A DNA stretch of 64,000 nucleotides, taken from NCBI GenBank assembly GCA_030615855.1, contig JAUWYL010000001.1, positions 53,850 through 117,849 on the forward strand, in the 5' to 3' direction. This DNA comes from a bacterium (GTDB lineage Bacteria > UBP18 > UBA7526). Position numbers and translations under genes: made by a program. The notes under the pieces are model-generated. The model was given only the letters and a program-made list of their open reading frames with translations. It searched no databases and was not told where the DNA came from. Positions 345-50,919 of this stretch are shown piece by piece. Position 1 is the first letter of the stretch. Every line of letters begins with the position of its first letter.

Positions 345-2702
345 ATGAAGGGAAGGATTCTATTCCGAATAGTGAAGGGAGGGCTCCTTTCTATTATCCT
401 CTATACTCCTCTCATCCATGCCACAAAGGGAATCGGCACCTTAACCACCACCTATATCCTCATTCTATTCCTGAGTATGCTCTGGCTCTTGAGGATGAAT
501 GGCCAGAGAAGTTTTAGATTCATAAATAGTCCCCTAAATCTTCCCTTGGCACTTTTTCTCCTTTTTGCTCTTCTCTCCACCCTTTTCTCTATCAATAAGG
601 GAGCAAGCCTCAGTGAACTCTATAAGGTCATTCTCTTCATTTTACTTTATTTCCTTTTAATCAATAATCTTAAAGAGAAATATCAATTCAGGTCTCTTTT
701 TCTTGCTATCCTGAGTATAGGAGGCATTGTTGCTGCTTATGGGCTCTATCAGTATTTTTCCCATTGGCCGAATTTAACTGAAATTTCCTCTACCTTCCCT
801 CCCAATCCTAACTCCTTGGCCGGCTATCTCCTCTTAATCATTCCCCTGGCCTTTGTCTATGCCCTATTCGCTTCCTCCAAGTGGCTCTCCGGGATGGGCT
901 TTGTTATCACCTTTCTTACTTATTCCTGTCTCTTTGCCACCCATTCTCGAGGAGGACGATTGGCCCTCTTCGGCTCCCTGATCCTCTTTCTCACCCTCAT
1001 CTTCAAGTATCTGAGGAGAAAAGAGCTTTTAAGGGCGAGATGGAGATTCTTAACCTTGGTTCTATTGCTCATCCTTCTCTCGGGAACCCTCTCTTCCCTC
1101 CGTCTTATTCCCAAGCCTCCTTCAGCTCAGCAGATTCCTCAGGTAGAGGAGGCTGGCTCGTCCCCGAGAATCGAGGCCCAGGGCCCAAGATATCCCCTTC
1201 GGGAATACTTCCATAGGGGTTTCACCCCTCTGGCGGGGATTTTTCCTGCAACAGTTCGGAAAAATTCCCTGTCACCCCTTGAGGGCAAGCAGATTCTTTC
1301 CCCCAACCCCCCTAATCCTCAGCATCGGAATTATTCAAATTCCGATGCTTCAAGCGATATCCTATTGGGAGAACCACTCTCCTTCCGCTCCTTCTCTTTC
1401 CAGAGAACCTCGACCAATAAGTTCATCTTCGATAGGCTTAAAATCTGGGGAAGAACCTTGGAGATCATAAGGGACTATCCCCTTTTGGGTAGCGGGATGG
1501 GGACTTACGGGATAATATTCAAGAGGCATAAGATCCCTACCCCCTTGACTTCCGGAACCATTGCCCGCTATGGTCAATCGGCAAGATTCGCTCATAACGA
1601 ATATCTTCAGATAGCAGCAGAGACTGGCCTCCCCACCCTAATAATCTTCTTATGGATAATAACTCTCATCCTCCGCACCGGCCTAAGGACCTTAAAAGAG
1701 TCTCAAGTAGCACAGGAGGTTTACGGTAAACGGTTAACGGTTAACGGTAAACCATTTATAACCATCGGCCTCCTCTCTGGCCTAACTGGGGTTCTCCTTC
1801 ACAGTTTCATCGACTTCGTCCTCCGTCCCCCAGCAACAGATATCTTATTCATCTACTTCATTGCTTTCATCATGCTCCAAGCGAAGGCGGGCGACGGACA
1901 GACGGACAGACGGACAGACGGACAGACCCATTACCCAGACTCCCTCTTCCACCACCTCTACCACAGTCCTCTCATTCGTGGCAGCCTCATCATCTGTGTT
2001 GCCTTAATCCTCGCTGGCCAGGCAACTCTTCCCTTGATAGCCTATAGACACTATAGAAAAGGGATCGACCATCAAAAGAATAAGGCCTTCGATCAAGCAA
2101 TATCCTCTTATCTCACCGCTCAGAGATTAGAGCCCACCAACGACCGCTATCATAAGAACCTAGGAGACCTCTATCGCCACCTGGCTCTTCTCTTTAAAGA
2201 AGAGAGGAGTTTCTGGCTGGAGAAGGCCACTGAGGAATGTGAGAAGATGGTCAGGTTGAGCCCTCGGGATAATCATTACAGGAGGGATTTAGGGGTCATC
2301 TACTGGCTCGCCTCCCAGGGAAGGGACAGGCTCCTGATGAATAAGGCCATCACCCAGTTTAAGGAATCTCTGAGGATCGATCCCACCTTCCCATTTTCTT
2401 CTTTCGCTTTAGGGGTCATCTATGCTAAGATAGGTTGGGTAGATAAGGCGATTGAGAGGTTTGAAAGAGCAGTCTACTACGAGCCAAATTATGCCGAGGC
2501 CCACTATAACCTGGCTACCCTCTATGTTTCCCAGGGCTTATTCAAAAAAGCGATTGCTGAATATCAAGAGATTGTTGAGATAGAGAATAAGAATCTCTTT
2601 CCTAAAGTATCCTGTGGTTATGAGAAGGCTCTGCTCAGCTTCGATTACTCTCTGGCCCATCACGGATTGAGAAGCTCTCTTAAAAAAGTGGCCAAATTTT
2701 GA
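345..2702 (+). CDS. O-antigen ligase (Wzy_C) family membrane protein with C-terminal TPR repeats
   Basis: Multiple TM helices, NPNSLAGYL, THSRGG, RLKIW..T.EII.DYPLLGSGMG, AHNEYLQIAAETG; TPRs at the C-terminus; carries repeat-derived inserts. Confidence 0.85.
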   Translation: MKGRILFRIVKGGLLSIILYTPLIHATKGIGTLTTTYILILFLSMLWLLRMNGQRSFRFINSPLNLPLALFLLFALLSTLFSINKGASLSELYKVILFILLYFLLINNLKEKYQFRSLFLAILSIGGIVAAYGLYQYFSHWPNLTEISSTFPPNPNSLAGYLLLIIPLAFVYALFASSKWLSGMGFVITFLTYSCLFATHSRGGRLALFGSLILFLTLIFKYLRRKELLRARWRFLTLVLLLILLSGTLSSLRLIPKPPSAQQIPQVEEAGSSPRIEAQGPRYPLREYFHRGFTPLAGIFPATVRKNSLSPLEGKQILSPNPPNPQHRNYSNSDASSDILLGEPLSFRSFSFQRTSTNKFIFDRLKIWGRTLEIIRDYPLLGSGMGTYGIIFKRHKIPTPLTSGTIARYGQSARFAHNEYLQIAAETGLPTLIIFLWIITLILRTGLRTLKESQVAQEVYGKRLTVNGKPFITIGLLSGLTGVLLHSFIDFVLRPPATDILFIYFIAFIMLQAKAGDGQTDRRTDGQTHYPDSLFHHLYHSPLIRGSLIICVALILAGQATLPLIAYRHYRKGIDHQKNKAFDQAISSYLTAQRLEPTNDRYHKNLGDLYRHLALLFKEERSFWLEKATEECEKMVRLSPRDNHYRRDLGVIYWLASQGRDRLLMNKAITQFKESLRIDPTFPFSSFALGVIYAKIGWVDKAIERFERAVYYEPNYAEAHYNLATLYVSQGLFKKAIAEYQEIVEIENKNLFPKVSCGYEKALLSFDYSLAHHGLRSSLKKVAKF

Positions 2703-2975
2703 CCCCGCCCCCATTTGTATTAGAGAAAACTTCTTTTAATTCGGCGCTTGAGATTGGCAAGCGAGGTTCCATGATGTTTCAATTTTTGCTCACGTTCTCT
2801 AGCATCTTTTGGGATACGATAAGCTTCATAATATATCAAAATCCAATTTTTGTCTTTTGCCCAATGTTCTTGTATCCTCCGTCTCAAATCCGTGGTGGAA
2901 CCAATATAAATTTTATGTGAAATTCTATTCTGAATAATATAGACGTATGACATAAGAACAAAATGGGGGCGGGGG
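2703..2975. mobile_element. Miniature element with CCCCGCCCCCATTT inverted ends and TTGA(C) direct repeats, carrying a GIY-YIG gene
   Basis: Left TTGA|CCCCGCCCCCATTTGT, right ACAAAATGGGGGCGGGGG|TTGAC; empty relatives at 20796, 36259, 36303, 40065, 50769. Confidence 0.65.
2720..2953 (-). CDS. Small stand-alone GIY-YIG nuclease (77 aa)
   Basis: MSYVYII...IYIGSTTDLRRRIQEH...YYEAY...ARERE..LK motifs; ATG at 2953. Confidence 0.85.
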   Translation of the reverse strand: MSYVYIIQNRISHKIYIGSTTDLRRRIQEHWAKDKNWILIYYEAYRIPKDAREREQKLKHHGTSLANLKRRIKRSFL

Positions 2976-3004
2976 TTGACAAGCATCTTTTAATTTGATA
3001 TACT
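2976..3004 (+). promoter_or_regulatory. sigma70-type promoter for the arsR-LCP operon
   Basis: TTGACA-17 nt-TATACT. Confidence 0.7.
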
Positions 3005-3063
3005 ATTTATGAATTCTCAATAATTTGAAGATACAAAAAGTCCTTTTAGAGTAGGAGGAGATA

Positions 3064-3351
3064 ATGAAGGATTTGAGACAGTCCGAGAAGGTCTTTAAGG
3101 CTTTAGGGTCCAGGACGCGGCTGAAGCTCTTGAGACTTCTCTGGCAGGAGGGGGAGTTACCGGTGACCCTCATTGCCCGGAGGTCGGGGATGACCATTGC
3201 CCGGGTCTCACGTAACTTGGGGATCCTGGAGAATGTAGGATTGGTGAAGACCAAGGAGACCAGAACCTGGGTCTTCTATTCCATCAATACCAATCCCTCG
3301 CATCCCTGGCAGGGGCTTTTGCTCAAACTCCTCAAAGAAGGATTTAAATAA
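3064..3351 (+). CDS. ArsR/SmtB family transcriptional regulator
   Basis: VFKALG..TRLKLL..L, VSRNL.ILE..GLV winged HTH; SD AGGAGG. Confidence 0.85.
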   Translation: MKDLRQSEKVFKALGSRTRLKLLRLLWQEGELPVTLIARRSGMTIARVSRNLGILENVGLVKTKETRTWVFYSINTNPSHPWQGLLLKLLKEGFK

Positions 3352-3359
3352 TAATTAAG

Positions 3360-4448
3360 ATGAAAAGGATAATTCTTGCCCTCATCCTAATAGTTCTATT
3401 AGCATCCCTTTTTCTTCTTAGAAAGAGTGCCTTAGAGAGGAGGCTGGAAGGGAAAGAGAGGCTTTCTTTTCTCATAATCGGTCTGGAGGGGGTAAAGGAA
3501 CCGCAGAGATTGAAAGATATCTTGCTTATTAACTACCAGCCCAATACTAAGAGAATAGCCTTGGTAATTATACCACCCCAGACCCTGGTCACTGAATCTA
3601 TGAAGCTGAGCACCCTTTACCGTCAGAAGGGGTATCTCCTGGTGAAAGAGACCCTGGAGGGTCTCTTGGATTTAGAGATCCCTTTCTATGTTGTGCTCGA
3701 TGACCAAGATATAGTCAGAATTATTAACCTTCTGGGAGGAATAGAAGTAGAGATCAATCAGCCCCTTTCTTATGGGAATGGCTTTTTAGAGGGGAAGAGG
3801 AGGTTATCTGGGAAAGAATGTCTGGCCTACTTGGAGTTTGAGGAACCTCGTTTTGGCGAGTTCGGCAAATTCTCCCGCTGGCAGAGATTCATCTGGACCC
3901 TCATCCAGAGATTTGGAGACTTCCCCCCAGACTCTAAATTAGCACGAGAACTCCTCAAAAGTTCCCCCCTTACCAACCTTAAGGTAAAGGATATCCTGGC
4001 CCTGGCTCAGGAAGCAGAAAATATAAGAGAGGCCGGGATAGAGGTAAAAAAGATTCCGGGCAGAACCATTTATAGAGACTGGATGAGCTACTGGCAGGTG
4101 GATATTTTAGCCACCTCTCAATTATTCAAGGAACTCAGTAGAGAACTGGGGAAGGGAAAAGGAATTATCCGGGTTGAGGTCCTGAATGGCTGTGGTAGAG
4201 GGGGGATCGCCTTCCAAGTGGCTCAAGACTTAAGAAGAAAGGGCCTGGATGTGGTAAATATCGGAAATGCCCGGAACTTCAAGTATAGAAAGACGCTCAT
4301 CTTGAATAGAAGTGGTAAGAAGGGATTGGCTCGGGAGGTAGCCAGGGTAGTAGGCTGTGGTGAGCCCCAAGATAGGATAGAGAAGAAGGCCCTGGTTGAT
4401 GTCACAGTCATCATCGGTCGAGATTACCTTGAGCATTATCTACAATAA
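3360..4448 (+). CDS. LCP (LytR-CpsA-Psr) family protein with LytR C-terminal domain
   Basis: N-terminal TM; INLLGGIEV; VEVLNGCGRGG.A; DVTVIIGRD. Confidence 0.8.
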   Translation: MKRIILALILIVLLASLFLLRKSALERRLEGKERLSFLIIGLEGVKEPQRLKDILLINYQPNTKRIALVIIPPQTLVTESMKLSTLYRQKGYLLVKETLEGLLDLEIPFYVVLDDQDIVRIINLLGGIEVEINQPLSYGNGFLEGKRRLSGKECLAYLEFEEPRFGEFGKFSRWQRFIWTLIQRFGDFPPDSKLARELLKSSPLTNLKVKDILALAQEAENIREAGIEVKKIPGRTIYRDWMSYWQVDILATSQLFKELSRELGKGKGIIRVEVLNGCGRGGIAFQVAQDLRRKGLDVVNIGNARNFKYRKTLILNRSGKKGLAREVARVVGCGEPQDRIEKKALVDVTVIIGRDYLEHYLQ

Positions 4449-4452
4449 ATCT

Positions 4453-4895
4453 TTACCACGAGGACACGAAAGAACGGAGACACGAAGATGGGTATAGAAT
4501 TTGAAGAACTATCAAGCAAAATTATTAAGGCAGCAATAGAAGTACATAAAAAATTAGGACCAGGATTCCTAGAATCAATATACCAACAAGCCTTGCTAAT
4601 CCAATTAAAGAAAGATGGGCTGAAAGTTGAAACTCAGAAAGAAGTAAAGATACACTATAACGGTCAAGAGGTAGGGACACATCGACTTGATCTAGTTGTT
4701 AATGAAACAATAATTATTGAATTAAAAGCAGTGAAAGAATTTGATGGAAGTCATATAGCACAGGTAATCTCATATTTAAAAGCCACGGGATTGAAAACTG
4801 GGTTGTTATTAAATTTTGCTAAAGCGACTTTAGAAATAAAAAGAGTAGTAAATTAAGTTTTTTTGTGTTTTCTTAATTTCGTATTTTCGTGGTAA
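4453..4895. mobile_element. Inverted-repeat cassette enclosing the GxxExxY gene
   Basis: TTACCACGA (4453-4461) / TCGTGGTAA (4887-4895) perfect 9-bp inverted ends with internal ACACGAA / TTCGT reiterations. Confidence 0.55.
4488..4856 (+). CDS. GxxExxY protein (PD-(D/E)XK-like nuclease fold)
   Basis: LGPGFLESIYQ.AL, RLDLVV...IIELKAV, QV.SYLK..G...GLLLNF; A-rich relative to neighbours. Confidence 0.9.
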   Translation: MGIEFEELSSKIIKAAIEVHKKLGPGFLESIYQQALLIQLKKDGLKVETQKEVKIHYNGQEVGTHRLDLVVNETIIIELKAVKEFDGSHIAQVISYLKATGLKTGLLLNFAKATLEIKRVVN

Positions 4896-4907
4896 TGAGG
4901 AGAATAG

Positions 4908-5648
4908 ATGGAGAAGACGAGAATCGTCCAATTGAGGAAGATCATTAAAGAGAAAAAGATTCATACCTTATTCCAGCCCATTGTTTCTTTAAAAGATCAG
5001 AAGCTCTTGGGGTATGAAGCCCTGAGTCGGGGACCAGAGGGCATGGCCTTGGAGAAACCGGCTCTCTTGTTTGAAACAGCAAATGCCAGTAGTATGACTT
5101 TAAAATTAGAGAATCTCTGTCACAGGCAGGCCATCAAGAGTGCCCAAAGACTTCCTAAAGGACTGAAACTCTTTCTCAATATTGAAACTCCGGTATTGGA
5201 TAGCCGCCTATACCAGAGGTTGGACTATCTTAGAGAATCAGCCTTGAGGCCAGAAGATATTGTTCTTGAGATCACAGAGAGAAGTGCAATAAAAGATATC
5301 AAAGATTTTAAGAAAAACATGGCCCTCTTTCGCAGGAAGGGTTTTCATTTTGCTCTGGATGATACCGGAACAGGCTATAATAACATAAAGGTCTTTTGGG
5401 AATTGAAGCCAGAATACCTCAAATTACCTGCTTTCCTGATGCGAAATATAGAGCGGGATCCCCTGAAAGAGAAGTTTATTAGGGTCTTGGTAGACTGTGC
5501 AAAGGGGGCAAAGGCAAAGACAATCGCTGAGGCAGTAGAGAGAAGAATAGAGCTTAAGGTTCTATGTAGGCTGGGAGTAGACTTTGGTCAGGGGTATCTC
5601 TTCGCCCGACCAGGGAAGCCCTTTCCCAAGCCCAGGAAGATTCGGTAA
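4908..5648 (+). CDS. Stand-alone EAL domain protein (putative c-di-GMP phosphodiesterase)
   Basis: FQPIV, YEALSR, LEITE, LDDTGTGY, IAEAVE, QGYLFARP. Confidence 0.85.
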   Translation: MEKTRIVQLRKIIKEKKIHTLFQPIVSLKDQKLLGYEALSRGPEGMALEKPALLFETANASSMTLKLENLCHRQAIKSAQRLPKGLKLFLNIETPVLDSRLYQRLDYLRESALRPEDIVLEITERSAIKDIKDFKKNMALFRRKGFHFALDDTGTGYNNIKVFWELKPEYLKLPAFLMRNIERDPLKEKFIRVLVDCAKGAKAKTIAEAVERRIELKVLCRLGVDFGQGYLFARPGKPFPKPRKIR

Positions 5649-5892
5649 ACGGTTACGGTTGCGCAACTCGTATCAAATGATATAGCACAATATCAAAAAT
5701 CAAAGTGCAAAAATCAAAATGACAATGCAAAATGTAAAATTTTAAGTTTTAATCTGTAATTTTGATATTTAATTTTCTTATAGGGTGTGTAATTTTAATT
5801 TTTGATGTTTACATTTTGATTTTTCTATATGGTTTCATTTTGATATTTGATATTTAATTTTTGATTTTCCTATAACGTATACCGAAAGACGA
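5643..5892. repeat. AT-rich CAAAAT/ATTTTG inverted microsatellite element; reverse-oriented copy at 38796-39008
   Basis: 5650-5690 matches the reverse complement of 38959-38999 at 37/41 nt. Confidence 0.75.
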
Positions 5893-5905
5893 ATTTCTGA
5901 GGAAT

Positions 5906-7546
5906 ATGATGGAGATTAGAGAAAAAATCATTGAGTCTCTTCAAGAGGCTCTTAAGAAAATTAAGGTGAAGAAGTATCCAGAGGTCCTTCTGGAGAGACC
6001 GAAGGAAAGGGGACACGGGGACTTTACCACAAATCTTTCTTTTTCTTTAGCCAAAGAGTTAAAGAAACCGCCCCAGGAGATTGCCAAAAGTTTGGTAAAA
6101 CACCTTGAGGCCCGCCCTAAGATAATAGAGAAGGTTGAAGAGGCCAAGGGATTCATCAATTTTTTTTTGGCTGAAGAGTTGCTCTTTGAAAATTTAATCC
6201 AAATTCTAAGAAAAGAGAAGAATTATGGGAAAAGCGAGACAGGTAAAGATAAGAGAATCCAGATTGAGATGGTGAGTGTCAACCCCACCGGCCCCTTACA
6301 TGTCGGCCATGGTCGGGGAGCGGCCTTTGCTGATACCTTAGCCAATATCCTGGAGGCCTCTGGCTACCAGGTGGAGCGGGAGTACTACATAAATGATATC
6401 GGCACCCAGATAGAGAACCTGGGCAAGTCCTTGAGGGCCAGGTATCTGGAACTCCTGGGCGAAGAAGTAGAATTCCCAGAGTATGGATACCAGGGAGAGT
6501 ATCTGATTGAGATGGCCCACAGATTAAAGGATAGAGAGGGCGATAAGCATCGAAAAGAGAAGATAGAATTCTTCACTCAATATGCCTCTTCAGATATTAT
6601 AGAGGGAATAAGAAAGGACCTTGAGGATTCTGGAATAAGGATAGACTCCTGGAAGAAAGAATCCGACCTCCACCGGGAAGGAAAGGTTAAAGAAGTTATC
6701 GATAATCTGAAGAAGAAAGGTTATCTCTATGAGAGGGAAGGGGCCCTATGGTTTAGGTCTTCCCAGTTTGGGGATGAGAAGGATAGGGTAATAAAAAAGA
6801 AGGATGGGTCCTCCACCTATTTAGCATCAGATATCGCCTATCATGAGGATAAGTTTAAGAGAGGATTTGATCATCTAGTAAATATCTGGGGTGCTGACCA
6901 TCATGGTTATGTGGAGCGCCTCCAGGCAGCAATAAGTGCTTTGGGTCATCCTAAAGAGAACTTGGACATCATCCTCTATCAACTGGTCAAACTCTCCCGC
7001 TCGGGAAAGCCGGTGGCCATGTCCACCAGGAAGGGAGAGTTCATCACTTTAAGAGAGGTAATGGATGAGGTAGGAAGAGATGTTACCCGCTTCTCCTTCT
7101 GTATGCGCTCCTCCTATTCTCATCTGGACTTTGATTTAGAACTGGCCAAAAAAGAATCCCCGGAGAACCCGGTCTACTATGTAGAGTATGCCCATGCTCG
7201 AATCTCGAGCATCTTTAAAAAGGCCAAGGAAAAAAAGGTAAAAAGAAAAAAGATTCAAGAGATAGATTTAAAATTGCTCAATACCCCAGAAGAGAAAAGT
7301 ATCCTAAAACTTTTGGCCCTCTTTCCAGATATCGTCACTTCTTGTGCTCAGAATTATCAGGTTCACAGTATCCCGAATTATCTCAGGGAAGTGGCCAGCG
7401 AGTTCCACACTTTCTATAATAGGCATCGGGTCTTGAGTGAGGACGCAGAGCTGACTCAGGCGAGATTAACCCTGGTGAAAGGAATAAGAATCGTCTTGCG
7501 TAATGGTTTGAGACTCTTAGGGATCAAAGCCCCCGAAAGGATGTAG
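5906..7546 (+). CDS. argS: Arginine--tRNA ligase
   Basis: NPTGPLHVGHGR (HIGH), MSTRKG, YVEYAHAR, C-terminal APERM. Confidence 0.97.
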   Translation: MMEIREKIIESLQEALKKIKVKKYPEVLLERPKERGHGDFTTNLSFSLAKELKKPPQEIAKSLVKHLEARPKIIEKVEEAKGFINFFLAEELLFENLIQILRKEKNYGKSETGKDKRIQIEMVSVNPTGPLHVGHGRGAAFADTLANILEASGYQVEREYYINDIGTQIENLGKSLRARYLELLGEEVEFPEYGYQGEYLIEMAHRLKDREGDKHRKEKIEFFTQYASSDIIEGIRKDLEDSGIRIDSWKKESDLHREGKVKEVIDNLKKKGYLYEREGALWFRSSQFGDEKDRVIKKKDGSSTYLASDIAYHEDKFKRGFDHLVNIWGADHHGYVERLQAAISALGHPKENLDIILYQLVKLSRSGKPVAMSTRKGEFITLREVMDEVGRDVTRFSFCMRSSYSHLDFDLELAKKESPENPVYYVEYAHARISSIFKKAKEKKVKRKKIQEIDLKLLNTPEEKSILKLLALFPDIVTSCAQNYQVHSIPNYLREVASEFHTFYNRHRVLSEDAELTQARLTLVKGIRIVLRNGLRLLGIKAPERM

Positions 7547-7576
7547 CCCCGCGTAGCGGGATAAATTAAAAAGTAT

Positions 7577-7684
7577 GGTAGTTACTACATCCCGTCAAAG
7601 CCGGGATTGTTACTATCGGTTACTACACTTCGTTGTTACTAACGGTTGCTTTTATTTCCGGTAACTGTTAGTAACCGCTGATAG
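7577..7684. repeat. GTTACTA-based element with internal hairpins; reverse-oriented copy at 58632-58752
   Basis: GTTACTACATCCCG...CGGGA.TGTTACTA...CTTCG shared in inverted orientation. Confidence 0.7.
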
Positions 7685-7694
7685 GGTGGTCGAT

Positions 7695-8324
7695 ATGAAG
7701 ATACGCTGGTTTGGTCAGGCCTGTTTTCTCATTGAATCAGAGAAGGGAATAAGAATAGTCACTGATCCTTTCAATTCCTCTCTGGGGTACAAGATTCCCC
7801 CCTTAGAGGCAGATATGGTTACCATAAGCCATGAGCATTATGACCATAACGCTACGGACCAAGTAAAAGGGAAACCAGAGATAGTAAGAGGAGTAGGCGA
7901 GAAGAAAATAAAAGATATCGCGATAAAAGGAGTGGATACCTTTCACGATAAGGCCCAAGGAGCCCAAAGGGGAAAGAACACCGTCTTTTCCTTTGAGATC
8001 GATGGAATGAAGATCGTTCACCTGGGAGACTTAGGTCATATACTCACTAAAGAACAGATTGGAGCCATAGGAGAGGTAGATATCCTCCTCATTCCCGTGG
8101 GAGGAACCTTCACCCTCGATGCCCAGGAAGCTACACAAGTAGTTGGGCAGTTGAAACCCAAGATTACCATTCCCATGCATTATAAGACCCCGGCCATCGA
8201 TCTTCCCATAGAAGGGGTAGAAAGATTTCTTTCTGGCAATAAGAATATAGAGAAGAAAAAAGAGTTGGAGAGCAGAAAAGAAGAACTGCCCAAAGAAGAA
8301 AAGATTATAGTTCTGGAGTATTGA
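7695..8324 (+). CDS. MBL-fold metallo-hydrolase
   Basis: SHEHYDH, HLGDLG, IPMHY. Confidence 0.9.
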   Translation: MKIRWFGQACFLIESEKGIRIVTDPFNSSLGYKIPPLEADMVTISHEHYDHNATDQVKGKPEIVRGVGEKKIKDIAIKGVDTFHDKAQGAQRGKNTVFSFEIDGMKIVHLGDLGHILTKEQIGAIGEVDILLIPVGGTFTLDAQEATQVVGQLKPKITIPMHYKTPAIDLPIEGVERFLSGNKNIEKKKELESRKEELPKEEKIIVLEY

Positions 8325-8327
8325 GAT

Positions 8328-8747
8328 ATGAGGAATCTCCTATTTACCATCTTAGGTATCATTATCATCGCTTCCCTGATCTTTCTCTTAGGTTATCTTG
8401 TGGGAAGGGGATATGAGCTAAGAGAGGAGCCCATATCCAAGAGAATCGAGAAAAAGGAAATGGTCTCTCCACCCCGAATTACTCCTAAGATTCCTCCTTT
8501 GAAAGAAGGGCTTCCCTATACGGTTCAGGTCGCCTCTTCTCAAAGTGAGGAGAAGGCCTTAGCATTAGTCAATAGATTAAAGGTCAAAGAGTATCCCGTT
8601 TATATCGAGGAAGTGGAATTAAAAGGGAAGAAATGGTATCGGGTAAGGGTGGGTTCCTTTCCGCATAAAGAAGATGCTTTAAAATTAGTAACCAGGCTGA
8701 AAGAAGAAGGTCTGCTAGATGCCATGGTCTGGAAGAGGGAGAAATGA
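8328..8747 (+). CDS. SPOR domain membrane protein
   Basis: N-terminal TM; YTVQVAS, WYRVRVGSF. Confidence 0.85.
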   Translation: MRNLLFTILGIIIIASLIFLLGYLVGRGYELREEPISKRIEKKEMVSPPRITPKIPPLKEGLPYTVQVASSQSEEKALALVNRLKVKEYPVYIEEVELKGKKWYRVRVGSFPHKEDALKLVTRLKEEGLLDAMVWKREK

Positions 8748-10027
8748 AAAAGATTAATATTGGACTGATTGGCTTTGGCACCGTAGGAAGTTCTGTGGTA
8801 AAAATTCTCAAAGAGAGAAAGGAACTCATCAAAAGGAAGTTGGGCGCTGAGTTAGTCATCAAGAGGATTGTCGATAAGGATATCTCTACCCCAAGGAAAG
8901 TAAAAGTGCCCGCCAAAATATTAACCAAGAGAATAAATGATGTCCTAAATGATCCGGAAATAGATATAGTCATTGAATTGATCGGTGACTCTCCCGTAGC
9001 AGAGAAAATCATCATGGGAGCGATCAAGAGGGGTAAGCCAATAGTAACAGCGAACAAGGCCCTCTTGGCAAAGAAGGGAAGGAGAATCTTTAAGGAGGCA
9101 GAAAGGAAGGGAGTGGAGATCTATTTTGAAGCGAGTGTAGGGGGTGGTATCCCCATCATCAAGGCCCTAAGGGAGGGCCTGGCGGCAAATAGGATCTCCT
9201 CTCTCTTCGGGATCATCAATGGCACAGCGAATTACATTCTCTCTGGAATGAGCCACTATGGATCGAGCTTCAAGGAGGCCCTGAGGGACGCCCGGGCCAA
9301 GGGCTATGCGGAAAGGGACCCTTCTTTAGATGTAGAGGGGATAGACTCTGCCCATAAGTTGACCATTCTCTCTACTTTGGCCTTCGAGGGTTTCGTAGAC
9401 TTAAAGGATATCTATAGGGAAGGTATTACGAAGATCACTTCTCAAGATATTCAATATGCCAAGGAGTTCGGCTATGTTGTGAAGCTACTGGCCATTGCCA
9501 AGGAGAGCAACGGTTCTTTAGAGGCCAGGGTTCATCCCACCATGATCCCCCAAGAGCATCTCCTGGCAGCGGTGGATGGGGCCTATAATGCCATCTATGT
9601 AAGAGGAGATCTCATAGGGAGGAGTATGTTCTACGGAAGAGGAGCAGGAGGATTTCCCGCAGCGAGTGCTGTAGTAGCGGACATCATGGATCTGGTCAAG
9701 TCAGGCGGCCGATTCCTATCCTCTAACTTCAGCAAGGGGCCTTTGAAGATTAAGAATATGGGGGAGGTGGAGACAAGATACTACATTCATTTTACAACCG
9801 TTGACCGACCGGGTGTCCTAGCTTCCATCTCTGGGATCCTGGCGAAACACAGGATTTCTATAGCCAGTGTCATCCAGAAAGAGAGGCGGGAGAAAGGGAA
9901 GGTGCCCATCGTTATGATGACTCATGAGGCCAAAGAGTCCTCAATCCAGAAGGCCTTAAGAGAGATCGATCGACTGAAGGTAGTGAAGGCGAAGTCCATG
10001 CTCATCCGGGTAGAAGGGGAACTCTAA
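8744..10027 (+). CDS. hom: Homoserine dehydrogenase with ACT domain
   Basis: GFGTVG, FEASVGGGIP, NGTANYIL, GYAE.DP. Confidence 0.95.
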   Translation: MKKINIGLIGFGTVGSSVVKILKERKELIKRKLGAELVIKRIVDKDISTPRKVKVPAKILTKRINDVLNDPEIDIVIELIGDSPVAEKIIMGAIKRGKPIVTANKALLAKKGRRIFKEAERKGVEIYFEASVGGGIPIIKALREGLAANRISSLFGIINGTANYILSGMSHYGSSFKEALRDARAKGYAERDPSLDVEGIDSAHKLTILSTLAFEGFVDLKDIYREGITKITSQDIQYAKEFGYVVKLLAIAKESNGSLEARVHPTMIPQEHLLAAVDGAYNAIYVRGDLIGRSMFYGRGAGGFPAASAVVADIMDLVKSGGRFLSSNFSKGPLKIKNMGEVETRYYIHFTTVDRPGVLASISGILAKHRISIASVIQKERREKGKVPIVMMTHEAKESSIQKALREIDRLKVVKAKSMLIRVEGEL

Positions 10028-11104: not shown

Positions 11105-11116
11105 CAGAACATAGGA

Positions 11117-11251: not shown

Positions 11252-11267
11252 GCGACATGGAGAAGAC

Positions 11268-13432: not shown

Positions 13433-13435
13433 GAG

Positions 13436-15250: not shown

Positions 15251-15264
15251 AATGTGGTGATTAT

Positions 15265-16188: not shown

Positions 16189-16197
16189 AGGAAATTA

Positions 16198-40064: not shown

Positions 40065-40162
40065 CCCCGCCCCCACTTATAAGAAGTTTTCAAGTTGCTA
40101 AAATAATATTAATAGGGAAAGTAACAAGATTTTTAAAAACGTCCCCAAAAATGGGGGTGGGG
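40065..40162. mobile_element. Empty CCCCGC-ended miniature element
   Basis: TTGA|CCCCGCCCCCAC ... ATGGGGGTGGGG|TTGAC. Confidence 0.7.
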
Positions 40163-40192
40163 TTGACTTTCCCCTTCTATAGATGGTATACT
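40163..40192 (+). promoter_or_regulatory. sigma70-type promoter of ileS
   Basis: TTGACT-18 nt-TATACT with extended -10 TG. Confidence 0.6.
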
Positions 40193-42977: not shown

Positions 42978-43055
42978 TAACCAGTAACCAGCGAACAGTA
43001 ACCAGTTTTTAACTGTACACTGTAAACTGTTAACTCCGACCGAAGGGAGGTCGCA

Positions 43056-43385
43056 ATGGAAGAGAAAGAGATCAAAAGAGAAAATGAGGCTAAAGCGTTG
43101 GAGAAGTTAAAGACTACAGTGCAGGGATTATCCGAACACTTGGAGAAGTTGAGAAGTGAGTATGTGGAACTCTTCAAAAGACCCCGGAAATTCATCTGGA
43201 TGAACCTTTTCTTAGGAATAGTGCGTGGGGTAGGGATGTTTATTGGAATGGCGGTCCTGGGTGCTATCTTGGTTGCTATTGGTACGATGATTATGAAAAA
43301 GGGGGAAGCTCTTCCAATAATTGGAGAATTCTTTGCCAAGATCAATCAGGTACTAGATCAGGTACTGAAGACGAGTGGTAAATAG
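43056..43385 (+). CDS. Hypothetical membrane protein (DUF5665-like)
   Basis: NLFLGIVRGVGMFIG, LPIIGEF. Confidence 0.6.
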   Translation: MEEKEIKRENEAKALEKLKTTVQGLSEHLEKLRSEYVELFKRPRKFIWMNLFLGIVRGVGMFIGMAVLGAILVAIGTMIMKKGEALPIIGEFFAKINQVLDQVLKTSGK

Positions 43386-43391: not shown

Positions 43392-43556
43392 GGATTTACG
43401 GTTAACGGTGTATGGTTTACGGTAAAAAACCCTCTCTCTTTTTACTTAAGATTACGATCCTAAACCGTAAACAGTAAACAGCCCGAAGGGCGGGCAAATT
43501 GAATAGTAGTTATTCATCAGCGGGGCAAGTGAAACGCACCGCTCAACGGTAAACGA
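43392..43556 (+). repeat. Composite repeat with 56-bp core, copy 2
   Basis: Core at 43492-43547, 52/56 identical to copy 1. Confidence 0.85.
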
Positions 43557-43576
43557 TTGATAGAAGGAGGAGACAA

Positions 43577-47735: not shown

Positions 47736-50132
47736 GTGAAAAAATCCTTTTTGGAGAGATTAAAAGACGAAATCCTGGTCTTTGATGGGGCGATGGGGAC
47801 GGAACTCCCCCCTAATTTAGGAAGATGCCCCGAAGGGTTAAACCTCACCCATCCAGAAGTAGTTGCTAAAGTCCATTCCTCCTATGTAGATGCTGGAGCG
47901 GATGTCATTACCACTAATACCTTTGGGGGGAATAGATTAAAACTAAAGGAGAGTGGTTTAGAAGATAAGTTAGAAGAAATCAATACCAGAGGAATAGAGA
48001 TAGCAAAGGAAGCGGCAGGAGATAAGGCATTGGTTGCTGCTTCTGTTGGCCCCACCGGAAAGTTATTAGAGCCTCTGGGAGAATTTACCTTTGACCAGTT
48101 CTACGATGTCTATCGAGAACAGATAAGAATTCTTGCTCAGGCAGGAGCAGATATCATCATCTTGGAGACCATGCTCGACATCCAGGAGGTGAAGATTGCC
48201 CTCTTAGCCGCAAAAGAGAATTGTGATCTTCCCGTAATCTCTTCCCTTACTTTTACTAAAGAGGGAAGAATGGTCACGGGAAGCGATCCTCTGATAGCTG
48301 CCACTATCTTAGAACCTTTAAAACCAGATCTCCTAGGAGCAAACTGTAGCTTGGGGCCTGAAGGGTTAATAAAAGTAATGAGGAAATTTGCTTCGGCAAC
48401 CGATCTTCCTCTCATTGTGGAGCCCAATGCCGGGCTTCCCAGAATGGTTCAAGGAAAGACCGTCTACCCCGCTTCCCCAGATTATATGGCGAGGTATGCT
48501 TCAGAGTTTGTTAACCTTGGAATAAATGTCGTAGGTAGTTGTTGTGGAAGCGGTCCTGAGCATACTAAGGCCATTATCAGTAAAGTAAAGGATAAAAGAC
48601 CCAAGAAAAGAAAAGTAAAATCGATGACTTATCTGGCATCAAGAACTAAGATCGCCTCTTTTGCTAAGAGACCAGTCATCATTGGGGAGAGGATAAACCC
48701 TACTGGGAAGAAGGCCCTTCAGGAAGAGTTAAGGAATGATAGATTCTCTTTAGTGAGGGAGGAGGCAAAGAAGCAGGCAGAGGAAGGGGCAAAGGTCTTA
48801 GATATGAATGTTGGTGGAGAGGGAATAGACGAAGCAAGGACTTTGAAGAAAGCGATCCTGGTTATAGAAAAGACAACTGACCTTTCTCTTTCCATCGATA
48901 GCCCCAATCCAGAGGCCATTGAGAAAGCCTTAAAAGTTATTGGAGGAAAGGCTCTCATCAATTCTGCAAATGGGAAAGAGGAATCTTTAAAAGTTATATT
49001 GCCCCTGGCCAAGAGGTTCGGAGCAGCGATTATTGGATTGACCTTAGATGAAGAGGGAATACCGAAGACTGCCGAGAAGAGACTCCAGATTGCCAAGAAG
49101 ATTGTTGATAGAGCAGTAAAAGTTGGGATTTCTAAAGAAAACATCTTCATCGATACCCTTACTTTGACAGTGGCCAGTCAGCAGGAACAGGCATTGGAAT
49201 CCCTGAAAGCCCTGAAGTTAGTAAAGAGGGAATTAGGGGTCAAGACAATTTTAGGAGTGAGCAACATCTCATTTGGCCTTCCCAATAGGCCTTTATTGAA
49301 TGCTACTTTTTATCATCTGGCGAAGAGCTATGGTCTGGATGCTGCCCTTATGAATCCCAGGGATGTTAAGTTAAAGGGTTCCTCCTTAGCATTAAAAGTT
49401 CTTAAGGGCGAGGATAAAGGAGCAAAGGAGTATATCAAGGTCCAGAAGGGAATAATAGAAGAAGAGATTAGACCAAAAGAAGAAGCGGATATTAGAATTC
49501 AGTTGAAAGAAGCAATTATTGAAGGTAATAAGGAAGATATCTTAAGACTTACGGAAGAGGCCCTGAAAAAAGAACTTAAGCCCTTAAAGATTATGGACGA
49601 GATTCTGACCCCGGCCATTACTTTAGTTGGTGAGAGATACGATGAGGGGATCTATTTTTTACCTCAGCTCATTTCCTCGGCAGAGGTCATGAAATTAGCC
49701 TGTGAGAGATTAAGCAAAGAAATGAAGAGAGAGACTATCTCTACCCAGGGGAGGATAGTTATGGCTACGGTAGAAGGAGACATCCACGATATCGGAAAGA
49801 ATATCGTCTCTTTACTCCTCTCCAATCATGGCTTTGAGGTAATTGACTTAGGAAAGGATGTTAAGAAAGAAAAGATTATTCAGGAAGTCCTCTCTCAGAA
49901 AGCAGATCTAATTGGCCTCTCTGCTCTAATGACCACTACTATGGGCCGGATGAAAGAAATAGGTGATGAACTGAAAAGACGGAGGATAGATATTCCCACT
50001 TTAGTGGGAGGTGCAGTAGTAACCAGTCAGTATGCTAAGAAAATTGGAGCGACCTATGCCGAGGATGCTATTGAAGCGGTAAAGAAAGCAAAAGAACTCA
50101 TAAGAGCAAGGGTGAGCAAGAAAAACAGATAA
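47736..50132 (+). CDS. metH: Cobalamin-dependent methionine synthase (Hcy, pterin and B12 domains)
   Basis: DGAMGT, GANCS, GSCCG, IGERINPTGK, DIHDIGKNIV, LSALMTTT. Confidence 0.9.
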   Translation: MKKSFLERLKDEILVFDGAMGTELPPNLGRCPEGLNLTHPEVVAKVHSSYVDAGADVITTNTFGGNRLKLKESGLEDKLEEINTRGIEIAKEAAGDKALVAASVGPTGKLLEPLGEFTFDQFYDVYREQIRILAQAGADIIILETMLDIQEVKIALLAAKENCDLPVISSLTFTKEGRMVTGSDPLIAATILEPLKPDLLGANCSLGPEGLIKVMRKFASATDLPLIVEPNAGLPRMVQGKTVYPASPDYMARYASEFVNLGINVVGSCCGSGPEHTKAIISKVKDKRPKKRKVKSMTYLASRTKIASFAKRPVIIGERINPTGKKALQEELRNDRFSLVREEAKKQAEEGAKVLDMNVGGEGIDEARTLKKAILVIEKTTDLSLSIDSPNPEAIEKALKVIGGKALINSANGKEESLKVILPLAKRFGAAIIGLTLDEEGIPKTAEKRLQIAKKIVDRAVKVGISKENIFIDTLTLTVASQQEQALESLKALKLVKRELGVKTILGVSNISFGLPNRPLLNATFYHLAKSYGLDAALMNPRDVKLKGSSLALKVLKGEDKGAKEYIKVQKGIIEEEIRPKEEADIRIQLKEAIIEGNKEDILRLTEEALKKELKPLKIMDEILTPAITLVGERYDEGIYFLPQLISSAEVMKLACERLSKEMKRETISTQGRIVMATVEGDIHDIGKNIVSLLLSNHGFEVIDLGKDVKKEKIIQEVLSQKADLIGLSALMTTTMGRMKEIGDELKRRRIDIPTLVGGAVVTSQYAKKIGATYAEDAIEAVKKAKELIRARVSKKNR

Positions 50133-50262
50133 AAAGTTAATAGCAGTTAATAACGGTTAATACCAGTTAATATCAATTGCTCTTTTAAATGCAACCGATT
50201 TTAACCGTTGATAACAGTTTTTAACCGATATTAACCTTCTTGCTAATCCGTGGAGGTAAGCA

Positions 50263-50919
50263 GTGATTATTAGTGAACAGAAACCGAGAGAAGAGATTTT
50301 AGAGATGCTAAAGGGTAAGGAAAAGGTATTCATCGTGGGTTGCGCTGCCTGCGCCACAAAGTGCCAGACCGGGGGAGAGGATGAGGTAAAGGAAATGAAA
50401 AGGGAACTAAAGAAAGAGGGCAAGAAGATTACTGGTACCATTGTTCTCGATACCCCTTGTGATGAGCGCATTGTGAAGAAAGACCTTTCTTCTCTTTCCT
50501 CCTTAAAGAATAGCAACTCTTTATTAATCATGGCCTGTGGCGTGGGATTGCAGACCATAGGGAAACTAATCGACAGGCCGCTCATCCCTGCTCTAAATCC
50601 TCTCTTTGCTGGAACCACAGAGAGGATTGGAAGATATTATGAATACTGCTCCCTCTGCGGCGACTGCCTCTTGGATGAGTTTGAAGGTCTCTGCCCTCTG
50701 ACGAGATGCGCCAAGGGACTATTGAACGGCCCCTGCGGCGGGGCACGGGATGGGAAATGTGAAGTAAACCCCGCCCCTGCGCGCAGGAGCGGGGTAAATG
50801 ATGAGATAGACTGTGTCTGGGCCTTGATCTATGAGAAGACAAAGGAGCCCCTTAAGACCTACTATGAGCCGCGGGATTACAAGAAGATATTGATGCCCGG
50901 AAGGAGGGTGGTGAGGTAA
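50263..50919 (+). CDS. metV: MTHFR C-terminal-domain protein (MetV-like Fe-S/Zn subunit)
   Basis: GC..CAT.C.TGG, C..CG.C, CP...CAKGLLNGPCGG; 30-bp insert at 50769-50798. Confidence 0.85.
   Translation: MIISEQKPREEILEMLKGKEKVFIVGCAACATKCQTGGEDEVKEMKRELKKEGKKITGTIVLDTPCDERIVKKDLSSLSSLKNSNSLLIMACGVGLQTIGKLIDRPLIPALNPLFAGTTERIGRYYEYCSLCGDCLLDEFEGLCPLTRCAKGLLNGPCGGARDGKCEVNPAPARRSGVNDEIDCVWALIYEKTKEPLKTYYEPRDYKKILMPGRRVVR

Follow-up and report, generated by a model that had tools for sequence, protein, structure and literature searches.

The six features that we recognise in the window (by which we mean the whole 64-kb stretch of DNA analysed here) belong to a mobile family whose members are bounded by mutually pairing G+C-rich ends, CCCCGC(A/C/T)CC... 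and its complement, and flanked by a 4-bp duplication, TT(C/G)A, before a pyrimidine. As to what moves them, the explanation that we favour, and consider reasonably probable on the strength of sequence comparisons, is that this family of mobile hairpins is mobilised by a GIY-YIG nuclease; the nuclease likely drives an element that ranks among the smallest self-contained mobile ones known.

Table 1. Elements of the family in the window, with the component parts of the gene-bearing element #1.
Feature	Position (strand)	Remarks
GIY-YIG-bearing element #1	2703-2974	14-bp perfect ends CCCCGCCCCCATTT / AAATGGGGGCGGGG
Left TTGA flank, element #1	2699-2702 (+)	its TGA terminates the Wzy_C/TPR gene upstream (345-2702)
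Left terminal inverted repeat CCCCGCCCCCATTT, element #1	2703-2716 (+)	
GIY-YIG nuclease gene #1	2720-2953 (-)	77 aa + stop, 234 nt; small single-domain Ssn/UPF0213-like
Right terminal inverted repeat AAATGGGGGCGGGG + one extra G, element #1	2961-2975 (+)	
Right TTGA, element #1	2976-3004 (+)	within TTGACA (-35-like); TATACT (-10-like) 17 nt on; by eye
ORF-less 103-bp element	20796-20898; with flanks 20792-20902 (+)	flanks TGAG/TGAA
118-bp element	36259-36376; with flanks 36255-36380 (+)	flanks TCAA/TCAA; nested element inside
Nested 52-bp hairpin element	36303-36354; with flanks 36299-36358 (+)	flanks TGAA/TGAA
ORF-less 98-bp element	40065-40162; span listed 40061-40168 (+)	flanks TTGA/TTGA
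Minimal 26-nt hairpin element	50769-50794; with flanks 50765-50798 (+)	flanks TAAA/TAAA; in TAAATG stop/start overlap

An initial annotation of this DNA had reported six elements with CCCC(G/A)C...G(C/T)GGGG ends, and all six could be read directly from the window, with positions and flanks as claimed save for an additional G at 2975, between the right end of element #1 and the right TTGA. The TGA within the left TTGA of element #1 closes an ORF of 802 codons; on the other side, the -35-like and -10-like boxes form a putative promoter upstream of an ArsR-like gene (3064-3351), and TTGACA...TTATACT is present in the related genome G001 without element #1. The 98-bp element, whose ends are almost the same as those of element #1, has a -35-like box, TTGACT, at its right flank, while at the 103-bp element the terminal G and TGAA form a GTG fused to an ORF of 771 codons. 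Relatives of the 103-bp element lie elsewhere in the same genome (C30 154760, C3 53723 and C14 26036), and the composite of the 118-bp element and its nested partner recurs at C30 150310-150427, with further copies in G002 and G004 that are 91-94% identical. The claim that the interiors are unrelated holds inside the window; genome-wide, families with related interiors occupy different loci. Copies inside these families are diverged, not identical, and activity may therefore be old.

A genome-wide search for the end pattern, applied to the genome that holds the window (G000; 1.375 Mb in 45 contigs) with at most one mismatch in the first 10 nt, recovered 59 inverted pairs that end in CCCCGC...GCGGGG and span 23-375 bp. 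Identical 4-nt direct flanks border 33 of the 59, whereas 2000 permutations gave 9.2 on average and never more than 17; inverted flanks border just two. Among the identical-flank pairs the 4-mers rank TTCA>TGAA>TCAA>TTGA, and the target rebuilt from all 33 reads T (32), T (33), C or G (23 and 8), A (33), and then T (17) or C (15). Near-identical 26-nt hairpins carry matched but different flanks – TTAA/TTAA at C7 11814, TAAA/TAAA at 50769 in the window – and the 4-nt flank therefore derives from the target and not from the element. Within the window CCCCRCCCC occurs eight times where 1.28 +/- 1.03 are expected (0 of 100 shuffles reach 8), and chance is excluded for this longer motif; the hexamer CCCCRC alone shows no enrichment there (55 against 44 expected; 9 of 100 shuffles reach 55), so that the signal resides in the longer motif together with pairing. 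The end motif TKVACCCCGCNCC is found 73 times in G000 (control 2) and 31, 79, 14, 52 and 31 times in five family relatives (controls 0-1), compared with 0, 0, 0, 2 and 1 times in five genomes without the gene.

Members range from bare hairpins of 23-26 nt, through ORF-less elements of 50-150 bp, some of them nested, to gene-bearing units of 272-374 bp. Nothing but a single-domain GIY-YIG nuclease of 77-101 aa, of the Ssn/UPF0213/SLX1-like type, is encoded within the larger units, and gene-bearing and ORF-less copies have their ends in common, as the terminal inverted repeats of a transposable element should be.

That the elements are true insertions is supported by comparison with related genomes. 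For three of the window's six, one to three relatives each have the element exactly missing from the same site, with one 4-mer left: the 103-bp element in G003 (L042), the 98-bp element in G002 (L022) and G003 (L025), where a single TTTGAC...TATACT stands in its place, and the 26-nt hairpin in G002 (L031), G004 (L028) and G003 (L030). In G002, a genome of the same genus, the syntenic site lacks the second GIY-YIG element of G000 (element #2; C35 39164-39537); this empty site reads cTTCATc, with a left-hand gene 41% identical over 390 aa (E 2e-100) and 70% DNA identity on the right. The empty alleles foreseen by the initial annotation are thus found, and its more specific expectation, a site with a single TTGA, was borne out for the 98-bp element and not for element #1, for which G001-G005 provide no clean empty site. 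Element #1 occupies the same place in G002, and synteny with the upstream gene is broken in G001, G003, G004 and G005; among the metagenome-contig joints listed, none spans 2703-2975. Between G000 and G002 element #1 differs at 1 of 280 positions, its flanks at 65 of 1452 and 22 of 1451.

Because these empty sites are precise and retain one 4-mer, they argue for insertion with a 4-bp target duplication and against conserved terminator stems. A broader version of the latter idea would have the features arise in place at gene boundaries as terminators, RNA-processing stems or protein-binding palindromes, and some observations fit: every element is intergenic and lies at a stop or start codon, two pairs bracket tRNA genes as processing stems would, and the short elements fold into stable hairpins (z -3.4 for the 26-nt hairpin; z -3.1 for the nested element, with 0 of 200 shuffles folding equally well; z -6.1 for the 118-bp element as single-stranded DNA). 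We regard such immobility as exceedingly improbable, since exact presence or absence at three sites of the window, in as many as three relatives, already contradicts it; moreover, related interiors recur at unrelated loci, one element is nested within another, the 98- and 103-nt elements fold no better than shuffles (z -1.5 and -1.1), and right flanks are TTCA, TTGA or TGAA rather than runs of T. Intrinsic terminators were rejected on similar grounds: the right flanks TTCA/TTGA are followed by mixed bases, loops between paired ends extend to 350 nt, and empty sites exist.

The protein encoded by element #1 matches the Pfam GIY-YIG family (PF01541) with 43.6 bits (cut-off 22.6). Searched across the whole genome, PF01541 gave 59.1 bits for the C35 gene (#2) and 41.1 bits for the window copy, and both small GIY-YIG genes of G000 lie inside CCCCGC-type ends, those of element #2 being CCCCGCACCTTTT, the commonest end type. 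Residues Y5, Y16, G18, R26, H30 and E55 (window numbering) are invariant in alignment A1, and the columns equivalent to Y5, Y16, R26, H30 and E55, which by reference to I-TevI and UvrC we take to be catalytic, are invariant also in alignment A3. Among solved structures, UPF0213 proteins come closest and the structure-specific nuclease SLX1 next. A homodimer model scored 0.54 (best control 0.00), with a partner pLDDT of at least 88 and runs agreeing in 100% of contacts; of proteins with solved structures, 20 of the 30 that are pairs reach this mark, as does 1 of the 23 that are single chains, and the model supports self-binding.

Homologous GIY-YIG genes in other genomes, whose flanks the initial annotation had proposed to compare, carry the same kind of ends. 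Close relatives of protein #2 (55-77% identity, several other phyla) sit in units of about 290-310 bp with (C)CCCGCACCT ends, and such ends are present on every one of the closest loci among the 39 that protein #2 recovered from named MAGs of Omnitrophota, Planctomycetota, Uhrbacteria, Saccharibacteria, Parcubacteria, Nitrospirae and Thermodesulfovibrionia. At 20 of these 39 loci, against 2 of 390 shuffles, there are flanking inverted repeats of 14 bp or more; a wider locus set has repeats of this length at 29 of 95, against 6 of 950. A tree of 121 proteins contains a clade of 23 rows (SH-aLRT 91), all of them end-bracketed, that includes both G000 genes. In three distant GIY-YIG units TTTA at one end faces TGAA at the other, which reads as a lengthened inverted repeat and not as a duplication.

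Small nucleases of this kind have a precedent. The main text of Chenal et al. (Nat Commun 2025, PMC11893778) describes Ssn GIY-YIG proteins that attach to hairpin repeats of single-stranded DNA, make their cut just upstream, and also act on stems built of two separate strands; the repeats flank the nuclease's own gene, and an IS-like origin is floated there as a hypothesis. Cutting of single-stranded DNA beside the hairpin, with double-stranded DNA and RNA left uncut, is a defining trait of the Ssn family. The initial annotation knew of no bacterial TIR element with GIY-YIG as its only gene; in this light that statement is outdated, and the idea advanced here is only partly new. By profile comparison our nucleases are homologous to Ssn family (cd10448) proteins, the comparison running through an SRM-flanked clade (A4): the profile of the end-bracketed clade (A3) aligns with A4 at 99.5% in hhalign (E 5.9e-23), and in the tree the window-type proteins form a sister clade of the SRM-flanked one, not a part of it. 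In both systems a single-domain protein of about 80-100 aa is encoded between inverted copies of a repeat of which the same genome holds many more; sequence and geometry of the repeat differ. Each NTS is its own hairpin, whereas here the two repeats are halves of one stem across the unit; the ends are of CCCCGC type here and CGTCATTCC...GGAATC there; and the C-terminus reads FGKAYGQLKxRI in place of KKWKRxWKLxLIE. SsnA is called monomeric in PMC11893778, at odds with our homodimer model. The terms 'target site' and 'duplication' are absent from its main text; new here, relative to that text, are the 4-bp target duplications, the empty sites, nested copies, ORF-less derivatives whose interiors are unrelated, and a distinct clade of proteins with mutually pairing ends. 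An SRM-like motif is present in 9-61 copies in five genomes, picked by the very feature subsequently counted, against 0 in controls; its stem variants are genome-specific and match the copies beside the gene.

A further question is whether some other enzyme could be responsible. These genomes are incomplete MAGs, and insertion sequences are frequently missing from MAG assemblies. Searches for Y1_Tnp (PF01797) and DDE_Tnp_1 found none in G000-G003 (a control search with Y1_Tnp gave matches in 6 of 14 reference genomes), and those for rve, the TnpB zinc ribbon, DDE_3 and IS110 found none in G000, G001, G002 and G005. G003 has matches to rve and IS110, G004 to rve together with a TnpB match below the Pfam cut-off. 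No multicopy repeat of at least 600 bp was found in G000.

It is conceivable, if rather unlikely in our judgement, that the hairpins are mobile and the nuclease a mere passenger or a domesticated single-stranded DNA nuclease, with another enzyme or a replication-linked host process moving them; lying between two repeats, the nuclease might restrict incoming repeat-carrying DNA as SsnA restricts transforming DNA in Neisseria. The main text of PMC11893778 shows such a host-level role in transformation and offers mobility only as a hypothesis on origin. In the same direction point the want of any known strand-transfer activity among GIY-YIG enzymes, the 14 end-motif matches in G003 (82% complete), where the small GIY-YIG gene was not found, and an internal gap of 7-11 residues in protein #1 relative to its relatives, on account of which the window's own copy may be inactive. 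The passenger role sits poorly with the linkage of gene and specific end sequence across several phyla at 55-77% protein identity, with the bracketing of all 23 rows of one protein clade, and with the absence of gene-bearing unit #2 itself from the syntenic site in G002. Nor is a substitute enzyme apparent: none of the six transposase families was found in the genus, all six being negative in G000-G002, with rve matches in G003 and G004 and IS110 in G003, and bare hairpins of 26 nt are probably too short for DDE paired-end complexes.

The favoured explanation, that the nuclease mobilises the family, would have ORF-less elements use it in trans. It would recognise the stem formed by the two ends in single-stranded or extruded DNA, as published Ssn proteins do hairpins, and nick at the base of the stem, adjoining TTSA. 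To our knowledge GIY-YIG enzymes hydrolyse DNA and have no joining activity; since a hydrolytic enzyme of this type alone cannot transfer strands, the pasting step would need host functions, with host polymerase and ligase finishing the move. That surviving insertions sit at gene boundaries would follow from the signals which the duplication restores: at ATGAA starts, the element's G plus TGAA would be read as GTG, with a GGAGG/AGGTG-like stretch of the end just ahead of it, TGA stops would be retained, and TTGAC -35-like boxes would be regenerated. Of the GIY-YIG-driven mini-transposon originally proposed, then, the insertions, duplications, ORF-less derivatives and linked ends stand, and catalysis by the nuclease is what we infer; on the two points by which that proposal had offered to be judged, homologues do carry the ends and empty alleles do exist.

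GIY-YIG enzymes are also classical homing endonucleases, and a drive of homing type, in which the nuclease cuts element-free sites or replication intermediates and the filled template is copied by recombinational repair instead of the element being excised and reinserted, would have the short flanks mirror cut-site preference. Typical homing targets recur among the homologues: 32 of 96 genes have a tRNA gene no more than 150 nt away, several have a duplicated partial tRNA, and one relative with 24-bp inverted ends interrupts 23S rRNA genes, some 150 nt from the 5' end, in both of the rRNA copies that genome G166 holds. Element #1 is, besides, more conserved than its flanks, as expected of recent copying between strains. 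We nonetheless judge homing distinctly unlikely, for it needs a homologous empty allele and leaves unexplained the spread over dozens of unrelated sites of a single genome, the matched duplications of different 4-mers on the same hairpin, and nested insertions. Neither a group I intron nor any other Rfam family covers the elements: at the gathering threshold the window yields one tRNA and nothing else, and at E<=0.1 no intron family appears at 16 loci. A homing endonuclease within a group I intron was rejected for this want of intron RNA around the gene, and the NCBIfam model of group I intron endonucleases scores 32.3 bits, below its cut-off of 56. From I-TevI, Seg and the Penelope GIY-YIG domain, with which the protein shares catalytic fold and conserved residues, the units differ in the absence of DNA-binding domain, intron RNA and reverse transcriptase.

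There are parallels with REP/REPIN-RAYT systems and the IS200/IS605 family: short palindromic, non-autonomous intergenic repeats, a low-copy gene between inverted repeat copies, very small coding capacity and, we suspect, hairpin recognition in single-stranded DNA. Identity with them was rejected, the Y1 HUH transposase being absent from G000-G003; the enzyme here is a GIY-YIG hydrolase. We know of no target duplications in IS200/IS605 elements or REPINs, whereas in the present elements the 4-bp duplications are matched and pairing is terminal, not subterminal. The GTAG/CGTC tag of REPs, as given in the available text of PMC3733652, is absent here.

With DDE MITEs and the Correia elements of Neisseria the family shares terminal inverted repeats, a short duplication, intergenic location and many ORF-less copies, and probably also ends that recreate expression signals upon insertion. 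In Correia elements the ends give rise to promoter boxes and RNase III sites. Unlike those elements, the present ones descend to 23-26 bp and have as sole gene a nuclease of 77-101 aa; DDE_Tnp_1 and DDE_3 were not found in the genomes searched, and rve only in G003 and G004.

A last comparison concerns insertions in CPR rRNA genes. According to the available text of PMC11270868 all GIY-YIG proteins there lie in insertions resembling neither intron class; that text has 0 occurrences of 'inverted repeat', and neither inverted ends nor duplications figure in it. The window's elements differ in being intergenic, and it is the G166 relative, within its 23S rRNA gene, that resembles these insertions and the RNase III-excised intervening sequences of 23S rRNA.

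The initial annotation had proposed, from inverted ends and 4-nt flanks, that the CCCCGC-ended elements of the window are mobile. This reading proved largely right: the elements show 4-bp duplications, and empty sites exist in relatives. Reading of the five window regions recovered every listed element, end and flank in its place; in the gene-bearing element (element 1) one surplus G separates the right end (2961-2974) from the right TTGA (2976-2979). The open reading frame within it encodes 77 residues and lies above the Pfam cut-off for GIY-YIG. The word CCCCRCCCC occurs eight times in the window against 1.28 expected, a number reached by none of 100 shuffles; the hexamer alone is not enriched there. 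Rfam recognised one tRNA and nothing else in the window, and no family covering CCCCGC-ended elements either there or at the relatives' loci examined (two sub-threshold eukaryotic matches at the latter were set aside as chance).

Locations of the elements and of accompanying features in the source genome
Feature	Location	Remark
Element 1	window 2703-2975	nuclease gene 2720-2953 (-)
Element 2	C35 39164-39537	nuclease gene 39292-39489
Other window elements	window 20796-20898, 36259-36376 (nested 36303-36354), 40065-40162, 50769-50794	
Second copy of the nested composite 36259-36376	C30 150310-150427	
Inverted pairs around tRNA genes	C3 19901-20016; C35 109006-109158	CCCCGCACCAT.. and CCCCGCCCCATT.., respectively; tRNA genes complete, minus strand
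Second palindromic family	C25 20563-20716; C45 22094-22245; C18 15261-15635; C26 14378 onward	words CACGGATT/CACAGATT
A+T-rich dispersed repeats	window 5690-5870, 37217-37323, 38798-39006, 42976-43059, 43462-43558, 50126-50239	short oligomers such as aaaatcaaa, cagtaacc, cggttaata
Candidate operator	window 3012-3031	gaattctcaataatttga
Pile-up of metagenome contigs	window 5484-6147	depth >1000 in two runs
Overlapping contig ends (examples)	C20 end/C36 start; C6 end/C23 start; C25 start/C42 end	

A scripted scan of all 45 contigs of the source assembly (G000, 1.375 Mb) for CCCC(G/A)C ends, allowing at most one mismatch over the first ten bases, returned 59 inverted pairs spanning 23-375 bp, with sizes grouped near 25, 50, 75 and 100-118 bp. 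Identical direct 4-base flanks border 33 of them (TTCA 15, TGAA 7, TCAA 5, TTGA 3, and TTAA, TAAA and CTCA once each), against a mean of 9.2 and a maximum of 17 when right flanks were re-dealt among pairs in 2000 trials; inverted flanks border only two. Brought to a common orientation, the reconstructed target reads T-T-(C 23, G 8)-A followed by T or C, the next base after TTGA always being C. Two near-identical 26-nt hairpins have different matched flanks (TTAA/TTAA at one site, TAAA/TAAA at the other), and the flank thus derives from the target. Several element families share interiors at unrelated loci, and the nested composite of the window is present a second time on contig C30, to which the window belongs. 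In G000 the end motif TKVACCCCGCNCC is present 73 times (control 2), and in five relatives of the same family 31, 79, 14, 52 and 31 times (controls 0-1); counts of 18, 13, 1, 6 and 8 in five distant genomes with end-bracketed GIY-YIG genes (the control in G176, one of these, was 11) and of 0, 0, 0, 2 and 1 in five genomes lacking the gene are an illustration rather than a test, both groups having been picked by the feature counted.

Other repeat types fit the data poorly. Integron attC-like sites, whose cassette boundaries also resemble direct repeats, were rejected since no G preference before the left 4-mer was apparent by eye and the elements are dispersed rather than arrayed; CRISPR-like repeats were rejected for want of arrays. 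A 771-bp pair at C16 8213-8983, considered as a larger element, resolved into two parts, one complete 48-bp element and a degenerate hairpin lying apart from it at the start codon of an ordinary gene, and none of three candidate long-range pairs of 600-4000 bp was convincing.

Two window stretches were searched against five genomes of the same family (G001-G005) and the junctions aligned. Empty sites with a single 4-mer – a check proposed beforehand – were found for three elements. The 98-bp element at 40065 is missing from G002 (same genus) and G003 (another genus), where a single TTTGAC stands 17-18 nt ahead of TATACT; the 103-bp element at 20796 is missing from G003; and the 26-nt hairpin at 50769 is missing from G002, G003 and G004, whose sequence there is ...gaagTAAAtgatgag..., containing one TAAA. 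In every case the flank alignments overlap by exactly four bases. Judged by these junctions, all three are insertions with a 4-bp duplication. The alternative that the ends are conserved terminator stems was rejected on the empty sites and the right-flank sequences.

The gene-bearing elements were followed in the same way. Element 2 is missing from the syntenic place in G002. One neighbouring gene there is 41% identical over 390 residues (E 2e-100), the opposite flank matches at 70% DNA identity, and the empty junction has the sequence cTTCATc, which on the other strand is an ATGAAG start. Element 1 has no clean empty site in G001-G005: G002 carries it, with one of 280 positions different from G000 against 65/1452 and 22/1451 in the flanks; in G001 the downstream promoter lacks it and adjoins different DNA; and in G003 the region is partly N-masked. 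In G004 (contig C34) two other CCCCGC elements occupy the promoter of the ArsR-like gene where G000 has element 1, one of them stopping exactly at the ATG of that gene (GGTGCGGG|ATGAAG); elements have therefore entered this intergenic space independently. Among the joints listed for metagenome contigs (four runs; contigs, not reads) on window 1500-21400, none runs across 2703-2975 or 20796-20898. Between the promoter-like boxes and the ArsR-like gene lies gaattctcaataatttga, of which the corresponding upstream region in G001 (contig C47) holds two copies; it may be an operator of the ArsR-like regulator.

A further feature of the insertions is their relation to gene signals. In 20 of 118 element-orientations a GTG formed from the last G of the element and a TGAA flank opens a reading frame of 136-803 codons. 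The other flank is ATGAA in most of these cases, and insertion therefore split an ATGAA start codon, leaving a GTG start behind the purine-rich end; that end, AAGGAGGGGCGGGG or AAAGGTGCGGGG, is a possible ribosome-binding site. At TTGA elements the left TGA terminates an upstream frame of 207-802 codons, and on the right TTGAC(A/T) resembles a -35 box. Either target choice or the survival of insertions that do no harm may lie behind this pattern, or both may.

A Pfam search of G000 located GIY-YIG domains in four places. Two are long open frames that look like UvrC-type repair proteins; the two small genes are both enclosed by family ends, that of element 2 lying between TTCA|CCCCGCACCTTTT and AAAAGGTGCGGGG|TCAT; a nested 53-nt hairpin element adjoins it. 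With a profile of 14 proteins, members of the small family were found in 127 of the 301 genomes sampled, frequently in several copies each. Within 100 nt of the ORF ends, 29 of 95 scored loci (96 were fetched) have inverted repeats of 14 bp or more; among shuffled controls the figure is 6 of 950. The element 2 protein, used to scan named genome records, yielded 50 loci; among the first 39 – the last 11, mostly Pelagibacterales with partial matches, being left out – 20 have such repeats, against 2 of 390 controls. That homologous GIY-YIG genes carry these ends, as had been anticipated, is borne out by the closest relatives of this protein (55-77% identical), all of which have (C)CCCGCACCT... 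ends and form units of ~290-310 bp, two of them reading TTGA|...|TTGACA exactly as in the window. Their MAG labels are Omnitrophota, Planctomycetota, Sedimentisphaerales, Uhrbacteria, Saccharibacteria, Parcubacteria, Nitrospirae and Thermodesulfovibrionia, and so high an identity between phyla suggests horizontal spread. The tree built from 121 proteins, a quick one with few columns and many unresolved forks, contains a clade of 23 rows (SH-aLRT 91), all end-bracketed and including both G000 genes, a clade of 34 (SH-aLRT 100) with other repeat types, and a clade of 29 with no flanking repeats.

The protein family, its hairpin repeats and the comparison with insertion sequences were published in 2025 (Chenal et al., Nat Commun 2025, PMC11893778), and our finding is for that reason not categorically new. 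As described in the main text of that paper, Ssn proteins (cd10448), small single-domain GIY-YIG nucleases, bind single-stranded DNA at a hairpin repeat (NTS/SRM) and cleave it immediately upstream, leaving duplex DNA and RNA uncut; 42% of homologues have NTS/SRM repeats on both sides, and genomes rich in the repeats mostly possess an Ssn gene. The NTS-ssnA-NTS arrangement was likened to an insertion sequence, to IS200/IS605 and to REP/RAYT, as a hypothesis about its origin and domestication; the reason for the many copies of the repeat, and for the position of the gene between two of them, was left open, and the terms 'target site' and 'duplication' are absent from that text (PMC11893778). 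Our profile of the CCCCGC-ended clade matches that of the SRM-flanked proteins with 99.5% probability. The other repeat classes at relatives' GIY-YIG loci correspond to the published SRM: in agreement with that description, the hairpin TCATTCCNGCGNAAGCNGGAAT is multicopy in five distant genomes (G219, G101, G245, G016 and G172; 9-61 copies, reversed-pattern controls 0), each with a compensatory stem variant – CCCGCG/CGCGGG, CCTGCG/CGCAGG or CCGGCG/CGCCGG – that is the one beside its own GIY-YIG gene. Separately, the GIY-YIG genes of CPR rRNA insertions are described as lying outside introns (PMC11270868). Besides these two papers, whose supplements may add repeat types or taxa, possibly this clade, we found no literature linking GIY-YIG to bacterial inverted-repeat or REP-like elements, and none on Ssn later than PMC11893778. 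What is new is the direct comparative evidence for transposition-like insertion; a separate clade whose units of ~300 bp are enclosed by two ends that together form one stem; ORF-less hairpin derivatives down to 26 nt; and the manner in which insertions appear to rebuild start codons, stop codons and -35 signals.

The finding is real. Genome comparison shows pairing ends, 4-bp duplications of TTSA (TTCA/TTGA), insertion polymorphism, and the coexistence of ORF-less and gene-bearing members, and the GIY-YIG protein belongs to a family for which cutting of single-stranded DNA at the base of a stem has been proven in other systems. In the most likely working, the recognition structure would be the stem built by the two ends; in bare hairpins of 23-26 nt, too short for synapsis of two separate duplex ends, hardly any other structure could serve. 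The nuclease would nick each strand next to TTSA, and host enzymes would fill and seal. A dimer would suit symmetric cuts: the homodimer model of the element 2 protein scores 0.54 against 0.00 for the best control (20 of 30 proteins whose solved structures are pairs reach this mark, as does 1 of 23 solved as single chains), with pLDDT of at least 88 and full agreement between runs, whereas SsnA is called monomeric in the main text of PMC11893778. The nearest solved structures are two UPF0213 proteins, then SLX1. By the published rule, Ssn makes its cut upstream of the hairpin; an attempt to obtain a 4-nt stagger on this basis gave no complete excision-insertion scheme, and the mechanism is an outline. 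Homing-type copying of the element strikes us as quite improbable.

That the nuclease is a passenger we consider unlikely. Y1_Tnp and DDE_Tnp_1 were not detected in G000-G003, nor rve, the TnpB zinc ribbon, DDE_3 or the IS110 domain in G000, G001, G002 and G005, in searches that cover incomplete assemblies and in which absence is not proof; rve has a single match each in G003 and G004, IS110 one in G003, and TnpB a match under Pfam's cut-off in G004. Self-comparison of G000 revealed no multicopy repeat of at least 600 bp. On a bolder reading, which we hold to be slightly less likely than not, GIY-YIG nucleases of the Ssn type would be true transposases and define a class of prokaryotic mobile element that had not been classified before. 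The autonomous unit would comprise two stem-pairing ends of 10-20 bp and one gene of 77-101 codons, ~270-310 bp in all; it would move via a hairpin or single-stranded intermediate, make 4-bp duplications, seed hairpin MITEs down to 23-26 nt and spread between phyla, its ends being so shaped that insertion at ATGAA, TGA or TTGAC would restore a start codon, a stop codon or a -35 box.

We know of no insertion sequence as small as this; IS200 measures ~700 bp. If the nuclease is indeed the engine, hydrolytic GIY-YIG would join the short list of transposase chemistries, the minimum size of autonomous DNA elements would have to be set lower, there would be an explanation for a widespread class of bacterial hairpin repeats, and the ends would offer a clear case of rebuilding an interrupted start codon, ribosome-binding site, stop codon or promoter box – possibly how elements persist in a streamlined 1.4-Mb genome. 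The same class would then account for NTS/SRM expansions, some non-intron rRNA-gene insertions and tRNA-adjacent small GIY-YIG genes. The window locus and its relatives supply the genetic signature of movement that had been missing – duplicated targets, alleles without the element, nested copies, derivatives that lack an ORF, and gene-end linkage across phyla – and the 'IS-like' idea is therefore directly testable with a 300-bp construct.

Several further observations concern RNA genes and other repeats. A tRNA gene lies within 150 nt at 32 of the 96 fetched loci. A separate clade of small GIY-YIG genes with no flanking inverted repeats sits beside tRNA genes (L009, L013/L095, L017, L164, L165 and other loci), and at several of these a 5' tRNA part, ending in the T-loop (GGTTC|), is duplicated, which suggests insertion into tRNA genes by another route. 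The tRNA-bracketing pairs of G000, which belong to the CCCCGC family, lack matched flanks and could be processing stems, two decayed adjacent elements, or a captured tRNA. In G166, the genome of one relative, the two rRNA operons of contig C1 (L087/L102) carry, within the 23S rRNA gene ~150 nt from its 5' end, a 320-bp unit with a GIY-YIG gene and 24-bp inverted ends, resembling an intervening sequence whose stem RNase III could remove. Members of the second palindromic family in G000 are nested in or abut CCCCGC elements; the A+T-rich repeats, intergenic and common to relatives, lack CCCCGC ends. Finally, many contig ends of G000 share 500-780 bp with the end of another contig, at 84-92% identity, which suggests a mix of closely related strains whose assembly breaks where the strains diverge.
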